Below are positions 23,720 through 32,000 of a DNA stretch of 64,000 bases, one piece after another (the first letter of the stretch is position 1; each line of letters starts with the position of its first letter). This stretch comes from Thermoplasmata archaeon (GTDB lineage Archaea > Thermoplasmatota > Thermoplasmata > GCA-020350865), in NCBI GenBank assembly GCA_020348445.1, contig CP070751.1, positions 125,906 through 189,905 on the forward strand, read 5' to 3'. Under the pieces are notes generated by a model. That model was not told where the DNA came from, ran no database searches, and was given only the letters and a program-made list of their open reading frames with translations. Both the position numbers and the translations under genes were made by a program.

Positions 23720-24208
23720 ATGCCCATCCGCCTGAAGAAAAGGCACAGGCTCAGAAAAAAAGAAATTAAAGCAATATCTGAGCATTTTGTCTCGATTTTT
23801 TTAAAACCGTGCATATCAGTATACGAAACCGTGGATAGGGCTGATGTTGGGAAATTCGATGTGATTCTAGTAAATGGTGAAATCCTGGGTATGGTCCTAA
23901 ACGACATGCCTTTTTTAACGGTGAAAGGGCTTTTAAAGTACCATCCTGAAAAACTTTATGTAACTGTGGACATGGGCGCCGTTAAATTCGTTTACAACGG
24001 AGCTGATGTAATGGCACCAGGCATCGTGGATGCGGATTCTGGCATCTCATCTGGCGATCTTGTATGGATAAGGGATGAAAAAAATTTAAAGCCCCTAGCT
24101 GTAGGCAAAGCATTGATGGATGGTTCTGAAATGATTCATTCAAACAAAGGTAAAGCTGTCATATCCATCCACCATGTGGGTGACGACATATGGAACCATG
24201 AAACCTGA
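23720..24208 (+). CDS. PUA-domain RNA-binding protein (archaeal DUF1947+PUA type)
   Basis: PFLTVKGLL, VTVDMGAVKFVYNGADVMAPGIVDAD, KGKAVISIHHVGDDIW. Confidence 0.9.
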   Translation: MPIRLKKRHRLRKKEIKAISEHFVSIFLKPCISVYETVDRADVGKFDVILVNGEILGMVLNDMPFLTVKGLLKYHPEKLYVTVDMGAVKFVYNGADVMAPGIVDADSGISSGDLVWIRDEKNLKPLAVGKALMDGSEMIHSNKGKAVISIHHVGDDIWNHET

Positions 24209-24285
24209 ATCTTGCATTTTTTAACCTGGGTACATTAATCATAATGATAATAAAAAAAATTGGGGATGTTCGATGCTGATTGTTA

Positions 24286-24663
24286 TTAATACGGTCCCTT
24301 GATCTTTGCCCTATCGATTTTCACTCCCTCAGGCGTAACGATAAGAAGATTCTTACTTACACCTGCAAGATCTCCCCCTACATCCCGTGAGACAGCCTTC
24401 AGTTCATTGGTTATCCGCCTTAGTGCAAGGTTATCTTTGGCTATGGGAGTAAAATCCAAAAGTAGGATGTTACCGCCGTAAACATACGATGTAAGGTCAC
24501 CCAAATCTTCATATCTATGTAATTCCGCGACTTTCACGTTCATTTTTGCGGGGAAAGCTCCAATATCCTCCCCTTCCATGTACAATTCACCTAGGTCTAT
24601 ATACTTCTCAGGTTCACCTGGTGGTGCCTCGCTTTTAAACTTTTTAAATGGTCTCTTTACCAC
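24286..24663 (-). CDS. sepF: Cell division protein SepF
   Basis: EKYIDLG, VKVAEL, VYGGNILLLDFT, GGDLAGVSKNLLIVTPEGVKIDR. GTG start about 6 nt after a GAGGTG SD. Confidence 0.88.
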   Translation of the reverse strand: MVKRPFKKFKSEAPPGEPEKYIDLGELYMEGEDIGAFPAKMNVKVAELHRYEDLGDLTSYVYGGNILLLDFTPIAKDNLALRRITNELKAVSRDVGGDLAGVSKNLLIVTPEGVKIDRAKIKGPY

Positions 24664-24894
24664 GTACAACACCTCTTCTTGCTCTCTGTATCGGTAACCA
24701 TTTATATAAATATAAGCTTTTTTGATGGTTCTTTGGGAAACTGAACTACATGAAAATTACAAATTAAGATATTTGTATTGTCCCAAATAAATACCTATTA
24801 AACACCAAGTTATCACCCTCAGAATAAATAAAATAAGGTCATTAAATGTAGGAAAGGTTTATAATCGATGTTACAAATAATGGTCCTCGGTTGA

Positions 24895-25113
24895 ATGGCA
24901 GAAGAGAATCTAAGGGAGCTAGATATGAGAGTATATCAGTACATAAAGCTCAACGATTTCGAGACTAACAAATGGTCCACATCTGAGGCAGCTAAATCTT
25001 TGGGTGTTGACGAGAGTGAGATATACGAATCGCTGGCCAATTTATCGAAGCACATGAAGGACAAGGTTTGGATATATTATAAGGACGGTGGGTTGAGGAT
25101 CGCGGCGGAGTGA
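24895..25113 (+). CDS. Small helix-turn-helix-like hypothetical protein
   Basis: TTTATAAT box upstream. STSEAAKSLGVDESEIYESLANL resembles an HTH. Ends 6 nt before tRNA-iMet. Confidence 0.7.
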   Translation: MAEENLRELDMRVYQYIKLNDFETNKWSTSEAAKSLGVDESEIYESLANLSKHMKDKVWIYYKDGGLRIAAE

Positions 25114-25119
25114 TCTTGT

Positions 25120-25247
25120 AGCGGGGTGGGGTAGCCAGGAAATCCCGAGGCATCTACCATAACCTCTTCGTATCATGCCTTGAGGCCTGATATCCCGACG
25201 GGCTCATAACCCGTAGATCGATAGTTCAAATCTATCCCCCGCTACCA
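25120..25247 (+). tRNA. tRNA-Met(CAT), initiator, with a 50-nt D-loop intron and encoded CCA
   Basis: Spliced form: acceptor AGCGGGG/CCCCGCT (A1-U72), D arm GGGT-AGCCAGGAAA-TCCC, anticodon stem ACGGG/CCCGT with three G-C pairs, loop CTCATAA (CAT at 25205-25207), T arm GATAG-TTCAAAT-CTATC, then ACCA. Confidence 0.93.
25142..25191 (+). other. Non-canonical tRNA intron (position about 20a/21) with a relaxed bulge-helix-bulge motif
   Basis: Central helix CAGG 25136-39 / CCTG 25186-89, bulges AAA and ATA, inner helix 25143-53 / 25175-85 (10 of 11 pairs). Cutting after the second nucleotide of each bulge restores GGAAATCCCG. Confidence 0.85.
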
Positions 25248-25366
25248 ATTATTTATTTCTTATAATCATCCTGTTTCTAATGAAATGTTGTTGGAAGACA
25301 AAATAATTTCTTAAACTTTGAAGGGATGAAAGGCAATTTTAAATCACCCATATTCTCCTTTCATCC

Positions 25367-25433
25367 GAGTGCGAAGTTATAATTAGACGTCGAATGGTTC
25401 TTAAGCTTCGCACTCCCCCGCTACTATAATCAT
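25367..25433 (+). repeat. tRNA-3'-end-fused hairpin element M1
   Basis: GAGTGCGAAG / CTTCGCACTC arms, 29-nt spacer TTATAATT...GGTTCTTAAG, then a copy of the tRNA-iMet 3' end TCCCCCGCTA and CTATAATCAT. Confidence 0.8.
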
Positions 25434-25450
25434 TATATAATTAGAATCGC

Positions 25451-25513
25451 AGCGTGTCAGTCGATGTTAAGTTGGTACGTTAGTTGATTCTTAAGCATCG
25501 ACATCCCCCGCTA
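25451..25513 (+). repeat. tRNA-3'-end-fused hairpin element M2
   Basis: GTCGATG (25460-66) / CATCGAC (25496-502) arms, 29-nt spacer TTAAG...GATTCTTAAG, then ATCCCCCGCTA. Confidence 0.8.
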
Positions 25514-25524
25514 TCTTCAATAAT

Positions 25525-25560
25525 TTCTTAAGATTCACGATCCTCCTCTACTATAATCAT
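25525..25560 (+). repeat. Degenerate right half of the hairpin element (M3)
   Basis: TTCTTAAG, 8 nt, TCCTCCTCTA, CTATAATCAT. Same spacing as M1 but with no left arm. Confidence 0.6.
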
Positions 25561-25952
25561 TAAAACTGATTGGTATCAAGATTTAATGATTCGTCATCTG
25601 GGTCGATTCTGTGAAGTACGTTTTTCCATACAATTTCAGATACGATCTCTGGTTTCAAATTTCCACTGGCCCAGCGCTCAATATCTTCTAAAGGAGGCTT
25701 GTACCCATAATATTTCTCTGCAACGTGAATCAGATCATTGAGCATTTGGTTCACAAAAAACTCACTGGTAATCACGATTTCGCATTCTGAAAGCATCTCA
25801 ATGGGCGGTTTTCCCTTTTCCCGGGGGACGGAAGTTGCCAAACTCTCAAATAAAAATCTAATCCTGCCTTTTTCAAAGGTGCTGACCTTAACAGCCGAAG
25901 GATATATTACCCTAAAGATAGGACTTCTTTTTGTATCCAATTTTATCTCCAT
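25560..25952 (-). CDS. Hypothetical protein
   Basis: 130-aa ORF with an AGGTGA SD and protein-like composition. No motif confidently recognised. Confidence 0.65.
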   Translation of the reverse strand: MEIKLDTKRSPIFRVIYPSAVKVSTFEKGRIRFLFESLATSVPREKGKPPIEMLSECEIVITSEFFVNQMLNDLIHVAEKYYGYKPPLEDIERWASGNLKPEIVSEIVWKNVLHRIDPDDESLNLDTNQF

Positions 25953-25995
25953 TAAATCACCTACTCCACATTCTTTTATCGCTTTATGTATGTTT

Positions 25996-26199
25996 CTATC
26001 TTGGTCTATACTTCTCCATCCTATTAAGTAATATTCTAAGATCGGTTTTTAAGGGTGTGTCTGATTTGGCCATCAAATCATTTACAGCCACAACCAATCC
26101 TTCTATACTATTTTCCTTATGCCCATCCAGGAATTCCTTGATCGTCTTCGGATCGGAAAGATAGGGTAAAACCTCTTCATACAAATCATCTACGTTCAT
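25996..26199 (-). CDS. Small helical hypothetical protein
   Basis: ORF downstream of and co-oriented with the aminopeptidase. Start moved to MNVDDLYEEV. Confidence 0.6.
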   Translation of the reverse strand: MNVDDLYEEVLPYLSDPKTIKEFLDGHKENSIEGLVVAVNDLMAKSDTPLKTDLRILLNRMEKYRPR

Positions 26200-26244
26200 G
26201 ACACCCACAACCAACCCGATTTACCTTGCCAGACTTCCTTTAAA

Positions 26245-27672
26245 TCAACTCCCATAGAATGCATTATATCCCTGGTGAGTTGCATACAAATCGGCCTTGC
26301 TCGCGATCTCAAATGGGGCATGGAGGCTGAGCACGGCAGGACCGCAGTCCACTACCTCCATGTTGTGCTCTGCCAGGAATTTCGCGATGGTTCCACCACC
26401 ACCCTCGTCTACCTTTCCCAGCTCTCCGGTTTGCCACGGAACCTTTTTCTTGTTGAAAAGGCGCCTTATCTCGCTGATATATTCTGCGTTGGCATCGTTT
26501 GACATGTATTTCCCTCCAGAACCAGTGAATTTCGTAATAACAAGGCCATAGCCAACTTTGGGCGCGTTTTTGATCTCATGGACATCCTTGTAATTGGGAT
26601 TCACACCCCCGGTAACATCTGAGGACAGGGCTTTGGATTTGGACAGGGCCTTTCTAAGCATACTGTATCTATAATCGGGATCTTTCAATTCCATGAGTTC
26701 ACCGATTAGGGTTTCCAAAAATCGGGAACGAACAGCGGTATTGCCTTCGCTTCCTATCTCCTCCTTGTCAAAGAAAAGAGCTATTGCTGTCCTCTTCGGC
26801 TTCTTTTGTGCAGCTATTGCGGTCATGGAAGCATAGGCACAGATTCGGTCATCCTGGCCATAAGCTCCGATCATGCTTTCATCGAAGCCGATATCTCTGG
26901 GTCTTCCTGCTGGTACGATTTCCAACTCTGCGGTTGTGAAATCCTCTTCAACGATTCCGTATTTCTTGTTAAGATGATCAAGCACCCACAATTTGATCTT
27001 CGATTTTGCTTTATCATCCTTTACAGGAACGCTTCCTACGAGCACGTTCAGTTCCTCTCCTTTTATCCCTTCCGACAGTCTTCTTTTGGCCTGTTTCCCT
27101 CGATAAAGATGCGGTTCCAAGTCTGTTATTGTAAAGGCTGGTTCATCTGGATCTTCACCGATTATTATATCCACTGCCTTGCCATTCCCCTTTACAATAT
27201 GACCGTGCACAGCCAAAGGCTGATTGACCCATTGATATTTTTTTATGCCGCCGTAGTAATGGGTTTTAAATAAAGCCAGCTTCGTGTCATCATCCTCATA
27301 TAGAGGATTCTGTTTAAGGTCCAGGCGAGGTGCGTCGATATGAGAGGCTATGATGTTAATGCCGTCTTCTATGGGCTCGGAACCCAAAACAATTAACGCG
27401 ATGTTCTTGTTGCGGTTGGTGATGTAGATCTTGGTTCTTGGTTTGGAGCCTTTGATCTCATCAATGCTCTTAAAACCGTTTTTTTCGGCGAATTTTATGA
27501 TCTCTGCCACGGCCTCCCTTTCGGTTTTAGCCTTGGCAAGAAAATCCTTATAGCCTTTTGAAAACTCGAAAACTGTTTTCTTCTCCTTCTGGCTGAGTTT
27601 GTCCCACACCAGCTCATGTTTTCTGGTCAGCTTCTCCTCTAACTTGGATTTTTTATCGTTCTTTTTAGCCAT
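26245..27672 (-). CDS. M18-family aminopeptidase (aspartyl aminopeptidase/aminopeptidase I-like)
   Basis: IASHIDAPRLDLK, KTHYYGGIKKYQW, YGQDDRICAY, FDKEEIGSEG, SSDVT, DCGPAVLSLHAPFEIASK. Confidence 0.92.
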   Translation of the reverse strand: MAKKNDKKSKLEEKLTRKHELVWDKLSQKEKKTVFEFSKGYKDFLAKAKTEREAVAEIIKFAEKNGFKSIDEIKGSKPRTKIYITNRNKNIALIVLGSEPIEDGINIIASHIDAPRLDLKQNPLYEDDDTKLALFKTHYYGGIKKYQWVNQPLAVHGHIVKGNGKAVDIIIGEDPDEPAFTITDLEPHLYRGKQAKRRLSEGIKGEELNVLVGSVPVKDDKAKSKIKLWVLDHLNKKYGIVEEDFTTAELEIVPAGRPRDIGFDESMIGAYGQDDRICAYASMTAIAAQKKPKRTAIALFFDKEEIGSEGNTAVRSRFLETLIGELMELKDPDYRYSMLRKALSKSKALSSDVTGGVNPNYKDVHEIKNAPKVGYGLVITKFTGSGGKYMSNDANAEYISEIRRLFNKKKVPWQTGELGKVDEGGGGTIAKFLAEHNMEVVDCGPAVLSLHAPFEIASKADLYATHQGYNAFYGS

Positions 27673-27810
27673 TTTTGCCCCCCTTGGTGCTAAGGGCAAA
27701 AGTTGTTGGATATTAAGTAATTTTCTATATTGTTATCCAGAAAGATGGTGAGGACTTGCCAAGTACAAATCTTTAAAAAAGCGGATAGCAATTACCTTTG
27801 GGGTTTTAAA

Positions 27811-27993
27811 ATGAAAAAGATTGCATTGGGTGAAACGTTGCCCATTGAGATTACCGAGGTTACGGAGGTTGAGGGAAAAGATAAGTTCAAGGTCGTATTC
27901 CAAGATGATGATGGTTTTGAGGGGACTCTTTATCTCGATGTGGAACTCCCTATAGGTGCGGCCGAGCTTAAGATCGTCCATAAGGAAGAGTGA
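27811..27993 (+). CDS. Small acidic beta-rich hypothetical protein (60 aa)
   Basis: MKKIALGETLPIEITEVTEVEGKDKFKVVFQDDDGFEGTLYLDVELPIGAAELKIVHKEE. Start moved from 27730. Confidence 0.55.
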   Translation: MKKIALGETLPIEITEVTEVEGKDKFKVVFQDDDGFEGTLYLDVELPIGAAELKIVHKEE

Positions 27994-28057
27994 TTCAAGG
28001 AAAGGGTGGTGAAAAGAAAGATTTAAAAGTCCCTATGGCTATAATAAGGTGATAAAT

Positions 28058-28225
28058 ATGGCTGATAGCGAATTCACAGGTAAGATCTTGATTAACGATG
28101 GTAAAAAGACGGTGACTGTCAATATAACTGGAAAATCAGAGGAAGAGCTTTACGAAATCTTCACATTCATGAGAAAGATGAAAAAAGATCCAGGAAACTA
28201 CTCGATAAATCTTAAAATCGATTGA
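28058..28225 (+). CDS. Small hypothetical protein (55 aa, below the ORF-track cutoff)
   Basis: AGGTGA SD at 28047-52, then ATG. MADSEFTGKILINDGKKTVTVNITGKSEEELYEIFTFMRKMKKDPGNYSINLKID followed by TGA. Confidence 0.6.
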   Translation: MADSEFTGKILINDGKKTVTVNITGKSEEELYEIFTFMRKMKKDPGNYSINLKID

Positions 28226-28320
28226 TATCAGAGCTTGTTTAAAGCTCACACTGTTTTGAAAAGTTTTATCTATCATATTAGATATCATGCTGGATACGAA
28301 ACTTGTTTGATTCATATAGA

Positions 28321-28438
28321 GTCGCACATTTGCTATGTAGCAATGTGTGATAATCGCAAATGTGTCCTACCGTGGCAGGCAAGCTGCCACTTAGTCGCAT
28401 AATTGCTATGCGATAATATGATATAATCGCAATTATGC
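28321..28438. promoter_or_regulatory. Two related inverted repeats (10-bp arms, 22-nt spacers) plus an intervening hairpin upstream of tRNA-Glu
   Basis: GCACATTTGC 28324-33 / GCAAATGTGT 28356-65; GCATAATTGC 28397-406 / GCAATTATGC 28429-38; GTGGCAG-GCAAG-CTGCCAC 28372-90. Confidence 0.6.
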
Positions 28439-28531
28439 TCCCGTAGTGTAGCCCGGCCAATCATTTTGGCCTCTCGCGGTCTTTTCGGCTGGAGAAAGCC
28501 AAGGACACGGGTTCAAATCCCGTCGGGAGCA
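28437..28531 (+). tRNA. tRNA-Glu(CTC) with a 20-nt canonical 37/38 intron (28477-28496); CCA not encoded
   Basis: Acceptor GCTCCCG/CGGGAGC, anticodon stem TTGGC/GCCAA, CTC at 28473-75, T arm ACGGG-TTCAAAT-CCCGT. BHB: CTCT/GGAG helix with CGC and AAA bulges and inner stem GGTC/GGCT. Confidence 0.92.
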
Positions 28532-28556
28532 CTTATATTTAATTTTGATTTGATAC

Positions 28557-28629
28557 GTGCTCCCGTCTCGTGTTTGAGTTATAATTTCATAATGCTGAGT
28601 TCTTAAGCTCAAACACCCGTCGGGAGCAC
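28557..28629 (+). repeat. tRNA-3'-end-fused hairpin element G1 (also mimics the tRNA-Glu acceptor stem)
   Basis: GTGTTTGAG 28570-78 / CTCAAACAC 28608-16, 29-nt spacer TTATAATT...GAGTTCTTAAG, then CCGTCGGGAGCAC. Outer arms GTGCTCCCG / CGGGAGCAC. Confidence 0.82.
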
Positions 28630-28830
28630 CCTATATTATGTAATTTTCGAGCGGGCGTAGGGGAGGTTTCTTTTTAACCCATTTTTTTCTTTGCCGACCC
28701 GAAGCCATCGTGGTGGACAGGAATTAAATTTAAGAGATACCTGTCCTCCACTAGGTAGTGGAAAACATTTATAATATCAAGGGGAATGTTTCCACAACAG
28801 CGAAGAAAATTACCTCAAAGAAAAAAACGG

Positions 28831-28862
28831 AGCTCAAACACCCGTCGGAAGCACTTATATTT
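28831..28862 (+). repeat. Right-half copy of element G1 (G2), a direct repeat of 28606-28629
   Basis: AGCTCAAACACCCGTCGGAAGCAC is 23/24 identical to G1 and is followed by TTATATTT, as is the real tRNA-Glu gene. Confidence 0.8.
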
Positions 28863-29022
28863 TCTTCAAAGAAGAAAGCAAAATTTATATCACAAACAAT
28901 AAAAAAATCGCACCACAACTGCTTTATATAATGCCAGACAATATAAATTAATTAATTAATAGGTAGGTAATTATAAAAATATAGACCCCAAAATTGCATA
29001 TTAGGAGGGGGGAACTGACACA

Positions 29023-32000
29023 ATGTGGGCTAAAAAGTCAATTTACGTGTCCAACCAATCAATGAAAATTCGGAAAAAAAGTGCTTTAAGACCATCAAAA
29101 AAGAGAACAAATTTTAAACATCGAATTTTTTCAATATTCACTATACTGGCCCTGATGTTGGGGGGAATGGCCTCTATTTTCCCGATTCTCATCCCGGAAA
29201 GCCTGCCAAGCGCAAGTGGTACGATCATCAGAAGTATCTTTTTCGACGATATGGAGGCAGGAGGCCCAGCGGCCCTAGGACAATGGCGCACTCAAGATGC
29301 ACTTCTTGTGAGGCCTTCTCAACCAAGTGCAAGCCAATGGGAACTGGGAACACCAACGCCACCACCTAATGCCTATTCACCTACAATTTGCTGGGGTACC
29401 GAATTGGGAGGGGCGTATTATAGTCCTTCTGAATATCTATTAATAACTCCAACCATCGATTTGACTACAGAAGCAATATTGAGTGCACAATTATCCTTCT
29501 GGCATACCTATTCCTTCTTCCAAAATGATGGAGGTTGGGTAGAAGTAAACCCTATGGGCTTCATGGTCGGAGATATCATCCATCCTGAGGGTGGTTACCC
29601 TGGTCACGTTTTCAGTCCACTAGGGATGGGGGGCTCAGGATATAACGGTTCAAATAGTGGATGGGAGCAAGCCATATTTGATCTATCAGAATATATAGGC
29701 CAAACGATAAGAATTGGATTTAGATTCTGTGGCTATAGCGGAGATATGATTTCCCGAGGATGGTACATCGATGATGTATCAGTGGATAATGAGTGGTTCG
29801 ACGGACCAAAGATTGGGCCAGATCAAACCAAAGCCGGATTTGGAGGAGATACCCTATCATACACCCTTACAGTCACCAATTACAACATTGTAGACGACTA
29901 TATTGATACCCATTACACGGACACAAATAATTGGCAGGTACGTATACTCAATGCCACAACCCTTCTTCCACTACAGGATAAGGGGGGTACACTTGGATTG
30001 CCTGACGTATATCTATCTCCCATGGAATCAGAGAATATAATTGTACAAGTTACGATTCCAGCAACCATAGATGATTGGGATATATCTGATACGACCATAA
30101 TATATGCTATTTCATTTGATAATCCCATGAACCAGGACACAGCAGAACTGATCACCAAAACTCCATGGCCCGATGTTGGTATCAGCAAAATCGCATTACC
30201 CAGTATAAAAAAAGTTGGCGATACGATAAACATCATCGTCACAGTAAAAAACTATGGGGATTGGACAACTTCTTTCAATGTTGAGGGTTTACTATCTGCC
30301 ATGCTGATCACTCCACCCTCCACGCAAGAACCTACATTACAATACATATCAAATCTCAAACCCAACGAGACCATTGATTTACAATGGAGTTTTATACCTA
30401 CTGTCTCATGTGAGTACACATTTTCCGCAACAACGTTACTTGACATCGATCAATTTGTTTATAATAACAAATCCGTAAAAAGCATACTGGTTCAAGAGAT
30501 GCTGTGGATGGATGACATGGAAAGTGGGGGAGATGCCGCCAATGGATTATGGACCCACTTCATCGATTCCGGCTCTTCCTCCACAACGGATTGGGAATTG
30601 GGAGTACCGACATGGCTCTCTGGCCCCTCTCCCAGCAGTGTGCCCTCACTGCCGAATTGCTGGGGCACCGATCTTAGCTATGCATATGCGGAGGATACTG
30701 ATTGCTACCTATTCACCCCTGCATCGTCAGCATTCGATTTTAGAGGATTTGACGAGATAGTCTTGGCTTTCTCTCACTGGTGGAGCCTACAATCCACCAC
30801 CACTCACGGTGAAGATGTTGGAATGATCGTTTATACATTCGATGCAGATCCAATTTCCACCATGTACATCACAGGAATTGAATTTAATACGAATTCAAAT
30901 GATTGGGAGCGCGAGGAAATCGATATGACACCTTTTGTAAAGGATGAACCATATGTGAGATTCGGCTGGAGACTTTTCGAAGATATAGGGGGTAATAAAT
31001 TCGAGCATGGGATATGGCCTGGATGGTATATGGATGATGTTGCGGTATGGGCCAAGCCTGCCAGGCCTGAAATCATTATTACCGAATTAATGGACAGCGG
31101 AGGTAATGAATATTTAGAGGTTTTCAATTGCGGATCCCAACCTGCAATTCTTAGTGAGTACGGTATAACTCTTGATATGGGTAGCACATGGTTGTCCTCA
31201 GGCACTTGGGGTGCTCCTTTTCTTTCACCTAATGGCCACACTTACTACAATATTCCTGCAGGTCTCGATGATCTCGATAATCAAGGTGAGACAATCAGCA
31301 TAGTAAATAGATCCATTATTGAAGGATTGATAACTGACCAGATATCATACGGTCAGAAGGGCACCGTTCCTGATCCATTACCAGGGGAAAGTGCGGCAAG
31401 ATATTGGGACGGAAGTAAGTACAAGAACGAGTGGGCCAGGGATAGCTCCCCAACCATTGGTTTTCAGAACGATGGGCAGGGCGAGGTTGACTTCAAATAT
31501 GTCGTTCTAAACGAGGTTCTCTATAATCCCGGGATAATTGAGGCTTTCATTGAATTAAGATATGTGGGTTATCCAGGAAATGAACCTGATATCGATGTTT
31601 CTGACTGGATTTTAGTTGTGGGTGATTCTGTATTTACAATACCTGCTAGTCCATTCAGTACGATACTCAACTTAAAGAATCCATTTTATGTGGTGAACGA
31701 AGGTATGTTCCCGGGTTTATTTGGTACTACTGATGTCGATGGCGACAACATTTATCTTTACACTGACTCAGGTTTATTTGTAGACGAGGTTGGATGGAAC
31801 CTCCCGCATGCACCTGATACTTCCATCTCAAGGGTCCCTGACGGATTTGGCGTGAAGCTGGGTTTTAAACAACATGGCCTCATGGGATATGACGATCCAA
31901 GTTCCATTGCAGCAGGTTGGCAATTCGGAAGGACACCCAGCATGTCTATAGTTGCAATCGAGGCAGATCAAAATGGAGTGGGAGATGCAGAATGGACCGT

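Follow-up and report, generated by a model that had tools for sequence, protein, structure and literature searches.

Hairpin units behind two tRNA genes

In the window analysed here, a 64,000-nucleotide stretch of contig CP070751.1, hairpin-forming units lie on the forward strand downstream of two tRNA genes. The gene for initiator tRNA-Met (25120-25247; A1:U72 pair, anticodon CAT, CCA encoded) is host to two complete units, M1 and M2, and that for tRNA-Glu(CUC) (28437-28531; 48.1 bits), which has an intron in its anticodon loop, is host to a third, G1. The initiator gene contains a 50-nt intron in its D-arm region (25142-25191), and contigs of other organisms from the same sediments join 25141 to 25192 in an intron-less version of the gene. 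Protein-coding neighbours of the units are ordinary, encoding SepF, a PUA-domain protein, an M18 peptidase and a large VWA protein.

The initial annotation had described M1, M2 and G1 as sharing one geometry with different arm sequences, and upon re-reading the sequence their coordinates, letters and shared geometry are exactly as it claimed. M1 (25367-25423; 59.3 bits under the covariance model described below) has perfect 10-bp arms at 25367-25376 and 25406-25415 around a loop at 25377-25405, M2 (25448-25513; 52.9 bits) has perfect 7-bp arms at 25460-25466 and 25496-25502 around a loop at 25467-25495, and G1 (28570-28629; 69.7 bits) has perfect 9-bp arms at 28570-28578 and 28608-28616 around a loop at 28579-28607. 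All three loops are 29 nt long, start with TTA and end with TTCTTAAG. The right arms run, as had been reported, into direct copies of the 3' end of the local tRNA, at 25414-25423 and 25504-25513 for initiator tRNA-Met and at 28617-28629 for tRNA-Glu. In the DNA folds of lowest energy, the arms pair and so do TTA and TAA (three pairs), leaving a single G unpaired; z-scores range from -2 to -4 for hairpins taken singly and from -4.7 to -6.8 for complete modules.

While the hairpin and the direct tRNA-end copy had been recognized, the full repeated unit is larger, and the part at 28532-28565 had been missed. Between the tRNA-Glu gene and the G1 hairpin lie an AT-rich spacer of 24-25 nt (S, 28532-28556), which forms the loop of a first hairpin, followed at 28557-28569 by a segment that we term X' (GTGCTCCCG) and a 4-nt pyrimidine link, TCTC. 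X' agrees at every position with the reverse complement of the tRNA-Glu 3' end, through the discriminator base and one base beyond. G1 is the only unit in the window with all parts of the module (28532-28629). The X' of M2 has decayed (CGCAGCG, approximately 25448-25454), and M1 is preceded by, and abuts, a hairpin of a second type (H2, 25323-25366: GGGATGAAAGG, a 23-nt loop, CCTTTCATCC) that takes the place of S and the inverted tRNA-end copy. H2 is almost unchanged at the orthologous initiator tRNA-Met position in genomes G001 and G003. The third Met unit (25525-25562), noted earlier as degenerate, does retain TTCTTAAG, a 10-nt right arm, a decayed tRNA-end copy (CTCCTCTA) and the CTATAATCATTA tail also found after M1, but its 5' side has been cut away and it scores under the model threshold; it is a relic.

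In two samples, independently obtained contigs match 25216-28454 and 28504-28724 at every position, so that the units in the window are not assembly artefacts. Beyond G1, the sequence at 28630-28700 (TATATTATGTAATTTTCGAGCGGGCGTAGGGGAGG...) is conserved in a metagenome locus (L061) and resembles a longer module (CGAGCAGGTGAAGGCGAG ...) that stands behind several tRNA genes of G001 and ends in another tRNA-end copy.

A family found across the genome behind tRNA genes

The genome of the window (G000; 5.16 Mb, single contig, 41.5% GC) contains 228 TTCTTAAG sites, seven of which have perfect arms of at least 7 bp at the 29-nt spacing, and all seven lie beside a tRNA gene. With a covariance model based on 18 copies, approximately 50 copies are found in the genome; some 26-28 tRNA genes have approximately 40 of them no more than 400 nt past their 3' ends, where chance is estimated to place well under one. 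Taken together, these two counts exclude chance, and the expectation of the initial annotation that the motif would be commoner near tRNA genes than elsewhere, with matches concentrated on their 3' side and each carrying the end of its own tRNA, is borne out. Several seemingly orphan units in fact follow multi-intron tRNAs that had been overlooked by tRNA finders. In arrays, which reach six units behind tRNA-Phe and arise by tandem duplication, units are spaced 60-150 nt apart with neither open reading frames nor genes between them. A tight, one-strand cluster of some 25 tRNA genes (4640570-4643566) is without modules and is possibly of foreign (viral or mobile-element) origin.

Model matches are present in all five genomes of one Methanomassiliicoccales-related genus of sediment archaea, including CP070739.1 ('Methanomassiliicoccales archaeon bin396'), at 15-42 copies each depending on the threshold, and there are none in 146 other genomes of the class. 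Sediment metagenomes add a dozen further units; 3 of 15 metagenome loci were set aside as loop-only chance matches at 11% GC. Literature searches found no published description, and we are apparently dealing with an undescribed family of non-coding DNA modules of about 100 bases behind tRNA genes. Such modules have a practical cost in metagenome-assembled genomes, in that they hide tRNA genes and mislead tRNA, repeat and att-site finders.

In being short, gene-less, multi-copy, lineage-restricted hairpins the modules resemble REP/BIME/REPIN sequences, MITEs and Rickettsia palindromic elements, and they share with REP-type repeats an intergenic position after genes, occurrence singly or in tandem and in both orientations, and frequent conservation in place. 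REP sequences, however, have a common stem sequence and a tie to a RAYT gene, whereas the stems of the modules vary and covary, only the loop is conserved and no linked enzyme was found; nor are REP sequences specific to tRNA gene ends or furnished with an inverted and a direct copy of the local target. A further likeness is to the rtT region of the Escherichia coli tyrT (tRNA-Tyr) locus, where tandem 178-bp repeats each end in the 3' terminal bases of the tRNA. These too are tandem repeats with tRNA-end copies behind a tRNA gene, but at a single locus, and without a shared hairpin core, an inverted copy or a genome-wide family.

Anatomy of the module

A complete module reads, in order, tRNA end (X), S (24 nt, AT-rich), X', link, arm, loop, arm' and a second, direct copy of X. 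At well-preserved loci X' exactly complements, in reverse, the final 8-12 nt of the gene together with 1-4 bases of its trailer; 3-4 nt of pyrimidine form the link, the arm has 9 bp, and the 29-nt loop has invariant ends and leaves one base unpaired. After arm' come two C's and then the direct X copy, which begins near tRNA position 59-61. The geometry is constant, with X' at +24, the loop at +47 and the distal X at about +87. Direct repeats of the tRNA end, 10-16 nt long, stand some 75-100 bp apart. The module is thus a miniature direct-inverted-direct triplication of the tRNA end around a hairpin core that is common to all loci, and can form either a pair of neighbouring hairpins (X:X' and arm:arm') or a single long, nested one. 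X' pairs with trailer bases, and with CCA where it is encoded, and at tRNA-Ala it has an A opposite U70 where the tRNA's own 5' strand has G. X' tracks the genomic sequence and was therefore templated on the local DNA strand and not on the mature tRNA or the tRNA 5' strand.

Arm and loop statistics were taken over 48 distinct copies from six genomes. The fixed 29-nt spacer of M1, M2 and G1 is found in 41 of the 48, while the remaining seven have 28 nt. Similarly, an extrahelical base between TAA and arm' is present in every copy, but is not always the G that had been proposed (G in 37, or 77%, A in 6 and T in 5). No variation is seen in the closing G-C pair, in TTAT at the start of the loop or in CTTAA near its end, so that the apical letters read G|TTAT ... 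CTTAA(N)|C, with an outer stem that is tRNA-specific or variable. In an alignment fitted to the structure, 95.5% of the cells of the 12-bp stem are paired, and 96 are doubly changed, against 27 +/- 4 when shuffled (0 of 500 shuffles as high); slid controls collapse. The earlier proposal of one family, with arms covarying around a fixed core as under selection, holds up on this larger set.

Three other ideas about these parts fared poorly. An inner loop helix (TAATTG/CAATTA), suggested by the fold at tRNA-Ala, is 63% paired with almost no double changes. The loop-end palindromes TTATAA and CTTAAG are not avoided in the genome (observed/expected 1.00 and 1.15), contrary to what a restriction-site idea would have it. 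The arms do resemble a T-loop (GTTCGA / TCGAA), but as copies of the host's own variant they do not hold, with TTCGAAT and TTCAAAT hosts being uncorrelated with CGAA and CAAA arms.

Conservation in place

Gene-rich DNA flanking the two tRNA genes is 72-77% identical between members of the genus, against 81-89% column identity for modules at orthologous tRNA genes with S and link included, a comparison in which the flanks are dominated by coding sequence. In most orthologue comparisons the similarity ends right after the module. S is conserved among tRNA loci as well as among species, and that of G1 matches its G001 orthologue at 22 of 25 positions. Loop centres, on the other hand, are locus-specific and common to orthologues, so copies have not been homogenised among loci. 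Changes in the arms preserve pairing: M2 has GTCGATG/CATCGAC in G000 and in G003 and GTGGATG/CATCCAC in G001, and orthologues at Ala-UGC show a compensatory CGAG/CTCG to CAAG/CTTG. The G004 orthologue of M1 has arms GTTGCGAAG/CTTCGCAAC. The two tRNA-end copies differ in their upkeep. Of 21 first units, 16 have an X' that is complementary without a mismatch over 8-12 nt, but in the distal X 42 of 164 positions are mismatched. The hairpin of tRNA end and X' is maintained, and the distal X decays as a target duplication would.

Units have nevertheless come and gone. Comparison of orthologous tRNA loci, as suggested in the initial annotation, did reveal the variation in unit number that it anticipated (0, 1, 1, 1-2 and 2-3 units at the initiator tRNA-Met locus of five species, G002 being the one with no module there), but not cargo between units. 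A module at Ala-GGC in G000 has no counterpart in G001. Given orthology and conservation across species whose flanks have diverged by about 25%, the modules are old residents and not recent insertions, and since units at different loci are never near-identical, nothing points to recent activity and any mobility belongs to the past.

DNA or RNA

The main rival to an origin as DNA elements is a role in RNA. Transcription would either run on from the pre-tRNA, making the module a structured 3' trailer, or be driven from a TATA-like stretch in S. The hairpins would then have a part in processing of the tRNA 3' end, in termination or in protection, or would give each tRNA its own small RNA resembling an acceptor stem. 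We regard this as unlikely, though with a good deal in its favour. The distance from the tRNA end is fixed, S, X', arms and loop ends are conserved among species, and X' stays complementary to its own tRNA 3' end and trailer; S contains T-runs and TTTATAT-like motifs similar to the TATA boxes upstream of some tRNA genes here, and in one species a related module (H3 plus X) serves as an intron plus 3' exon.

Several features of the fold are nonetheless awkward for an RNA. Mismatches in the arms comprise nine G.T and twelve A.C, 21 in all and some of them from decaying copies, so the excess of wobble pairs that is typical of RNA helices is missing, which fits DNA pairing of the sort known from attC sites and HUH-enzyme substrates. 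Moreover, the loop is inverted relative to the tRNA at five or six loci with its sequence retained, and Leu-GAG orthologues in G000 and G001 have opposite loop orientations. The lack of a G.T excess and the tolerance of loop inversion lead us to favour pairing and recognition at the level of DNA; the mismatch counts are small, however, and in part come from decaying copies, so that an RNA role keeps its standing. In a tRNA minihelix the stem does not close over the discriminator base as it does here, an X:X' helix of 10-13 bp would be in competition with the acceptor stem of 7 bp, the distal X that an acceptor mimic would require is the part that decays, and the inner loop helix mentioned above is poorly paired and scarcely covaries. 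Nor is there a matching Rfam family: a search of 24000-30000 at E <= 1 returned only the two tRNAs and a sub-threshold match to permuted tmRNA, which spans the tRNA T-arm and 3' end, the spacer and the start of a unit. No C/D boxes were seen in the units by eye.

Mobile elements and the search for an enzyme

The initial annotation had interpreted the units as recombination sites or scars of a tRNA-targeting mini-element or cassette system, whether attC-like, integrase att sites or the ends of casposons or HUH transposons, recombined as folded single strands by an enzyme encoded elsewhere. Much about the units invites this comparison: direct repeats of the tRNA 3' end flank them in the manner of a target duplication, variable arms surround a conserved core with one extrahelical base, pairing seems to be at the DNA level, and array length differs between species. 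Like attC sites, the modules would be expected to function as folded single strands whose structure is kept while sequence is poorly kept. The conserved part is at the wrong end, however. In attC the basal R''/R' boxes (RYYYAAC / GTTRRRY) are conserved and the top is variable, whereas in the modules it is the apical loop that is conserved. An attC site also needs a gene cassette, IntI and attI, while here cassettes are absent, the search gave no IntI-like gene, and the units are orthologous across species rather than polymorphic insertions.

Neither did the enzymes named in that proposal turn up in a suitable form. No match to Cas1 came from the genome, whose completeness by marker genes is 82%. 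A search with PF00589 for tyrosine integrases gave two matches, but both are C-terminal fragments (1864225-1864380 beside tRNA-Leu(UAA), and 2412539-2412649 beside a tRNA-Met that adjoins masked (N) sequence); this is the pattern left by SSV-type integration, and neither tRNA gene has modules. Five Y1 (HUH) transposase genes (Y1_Tnp) are present, as the proposal would have it, but no model match lies next to any of them, and IS200/IS605 is rejected as mobiliser by comparison with the one Y1 element with definable ends, a 661-bp IS200 copy whose GC-rich, short-loop end hairpins are unlike the units. The casposon comparison, too, finds module ends that are not inverted repeats of each other, and as MITEs the modules would have the direct target repeats of 10-16 nt but termini that are not inverted repeats and stems that vary among copies. 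We know of no parent transposon. A viral origin was also rejected, the sole match of the loop pattern on a viral contig being an armless chance match inside a coding region. Finally, a read joint that skips 28525-28566, considered as a possible trace of excision, is better explained by ambiguous short contigs of relatives (19-23-nt sides, 85% likeness).

SSV-type integrases, those of the pNOB8/pTN3 type and the Aciduliprofundum casposon do, like the modules, target tRNA 3' ends, leave the tRNA intact and generate direct end repeats. Such elements are nevertheless kilobases long, encode their own enzyme and use one fixed site for one tRNA (the casposon with a Cas1 casposase, terminal inverted repeats and a 14-15-bp target duplication), whereas the modules are of about 100 bp, occupy some 25 tRNA loci with a copy tailored to each, and add an inverted copy.

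Cargo is found between tRNA-end repeats at two other genes and counts in favour of recombination. At tRNA-Lys(CUU) (2798337-2800906; L059) 2.4 kb with an AbiEi/AbiEii toxin-antitoxin pair and small open reading frames ends at an 18-nt direct repeat of the tRNA-Lys 3' end, but this cassette has no hairpin unit, and it has no integrase. At tRNA-Val(GAC) (1266097-1270330; L058) a 3.8-kb segment with a MacB-type ABC transporter has at its far end a complex module composed of a tRNA-end copy, spacer, inverted copy, two hairpins and a 12-nt tRNA-end copy; the region is bracketed by a repeat of about 120 nt, and a paralogous module is located at 3.595 Mb. Between units there is no cargo in any array examined. 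Age, orthology and the lack of cargo in most arrays argue against an active attC-like cassette system, and on the reading that we favour the modules are neither such a system nor currently active recombination sites; that they are sites or scars of one whose enzyme lies elsewhere seems to us quite improbable.

Whole modules have, on the other hand, moved in the past. Four copies away from tRNA genes (at 70953, 1385636, 2191815 and 4053188) are 78-84% identical over a repeat of about 130 nt with sharp ends, which is taken as evidence of that movement. They lie in C/T-rich intergenic DNA and contain spacer, inverted copy, hairpin and partial direct copy, together with their own pseudo-target (CCCCACCGTCGTGGCCTAT), which matches no tRNA of the genome. 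The surroundings of the four have no genes in common, the shared part being the repeat only.

A proposed foldback element that copies its target

It may be asked whether an element is needed at all. Template switching of the kind that yields tandem inversion duplications or ODIRA triplications, acting repeatedly where strongly transcribed tRNA genes have their palindromic T-arm and trailer, would leave direct-inverted-direct copies of the tRNA end as a neutral by-product, with no function. The order of the X copies is the one expected, junctions capable of forming hairpins are common to both, the arms resemble the T-loop as noted above, and small loop inversions are a known mutational behaviour of hairpins. 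In two metagenome loci (L072 and L074) an H2-type hairpin sits between exact inverted copies of the local T-loop and tRNA 3' end, and there are analogous units, made from tRNA 5' ends, upstream of tRNA genes. The junctions of tandem inversion duplications and ODIRA products are, however, local and unrelated, whereas the module junction loops (S and the 29-nt loop) are one family, homologous across some 25 tRNA loci, which independent local events cannot produce. The copied segment is also only 10-20 nt, unlike in those rearrangements, arm variants do not track the T-loop variant of the host, no loop end varies among 48 copies, and the modules are better conserved between species than the DNA around them. 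We therefore consider a purely mutational origin very improbable.

The loop and S shared at some 25 tRNA genes require common descent of the core, for which purely local template-switch accidents are insufficient, and the locus-specific X' and X require that the local target was copied, for which integrase recombination at a fixed attachment site is insufficient. Our tentative reading, held at a little under an even chance, is that the modules descend from a foldback DNA element, old and non-autonomous, which copied the target at each site and has since been conserved where it stands. By the same reading, and with the same reserve, M1, M2 and G1 would be genus-restricted, non-coding foldback (palindromic) modules fixed at the 3' boundary of tRNA genes. 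The core would have spread in the ancestor of the genus, as a non-autonomous element, to some 25 tRNA genes and a few other sites; each insertion would have drawn its copy of local DNA from the tRNA gene end through copy-choice or fold-back synthesis and not through integrase-type recombination. Thereafter the modules would have been inherited vertically, multiplied by unequal crossing-over between X copies, occasionally been flipped in place and sometimes lost. Purifying selection, possibly aided by hairpin-templated correction, would keep S, X', arms and loop ends, of which the last are probably a binding site for a protein, while the distal X would decay like a target-site duplication. What is seen today may be domesticated or self-maintaining DNA-structure elements located where tRNA transcription units end. 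We infer both the insertion chemistry and the present function, the mechanism being read from the anatomy of the modules alone.

Several points weigh against the foldback reading. To our knowledge there is no enzyme or precedent for an insertion that copies its target in both orientations. The strong conservation of S and of the loop ends, which are not palindromic, argues for a host function. The existence of tRNA genes without modules, and of an initiator tRNA-Met locus without one in G002, means that any function of the modules is dispensable.

If the foldback reading is right, most tRNA genes of one archaeal genus have had their flanks rebuilt by small hairpin modules bearing copies of the genes' own ends, short repeats would have a new, integrase-free route by which to home in on tRNA genes, and there would be a natural case of DNA hairpins conserved over the long term. 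A bolder version, which we think unlikely but worth stating, is that the modules are the products, and perhaps still the substrates, of an undescribed kind of mobile DNA, in which a core of about 50 nt would be recognised as a folded single strand by a putative protein and inserted at tRNA ends by target-templated synthesis, each copy being tailored with inverted and direct copies of the host end. As a side effect, spare 3' ends would turn downstream DNA into T-loop introns.

Spare tRNA ends and sequences upstream of tRNA genes

This last idea has a concrete example in a tRNA-Glu gene of G000 (668240-668395; L002:331-596), the T-loop of which is interrupted by a 49-nt hairpin intron. In G001 the orthologous gene (L057:510-800) is uninterrupted, and nearly the same 49-nt element, together with a perfect spare 3' end, is located downstream after a hairpin unit. 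Members of the same T-loop intron family are also present in tRNA-SeC and in a tRNA gene at 2.8798 Mb. From this arrangement it appears that downstream spare tRNA ends may give rise to T-loop introns, making the modules a plausible source of these unusual tRNA introns.

The DNA upstream of tRNA genes has palindromes as well. At 28320-28441, ahead of the tRNA-Glu gene of the window, are two 49-nt repeats, each with a 10-bp palindrome, and the palindromes differ yet stay paired (GCACATTTGC/GCAAATGTG and GCATAATTGC/GCAATTATGC); the second repeat runs into the first bases of the tRNA. Between the two repeats is a leader hairpin, CGTGGCAG-GCAA-CTGCCAC (28371-28390), and similar CGTGG...CCAC hairpins precede many tRNA genes across the genome.
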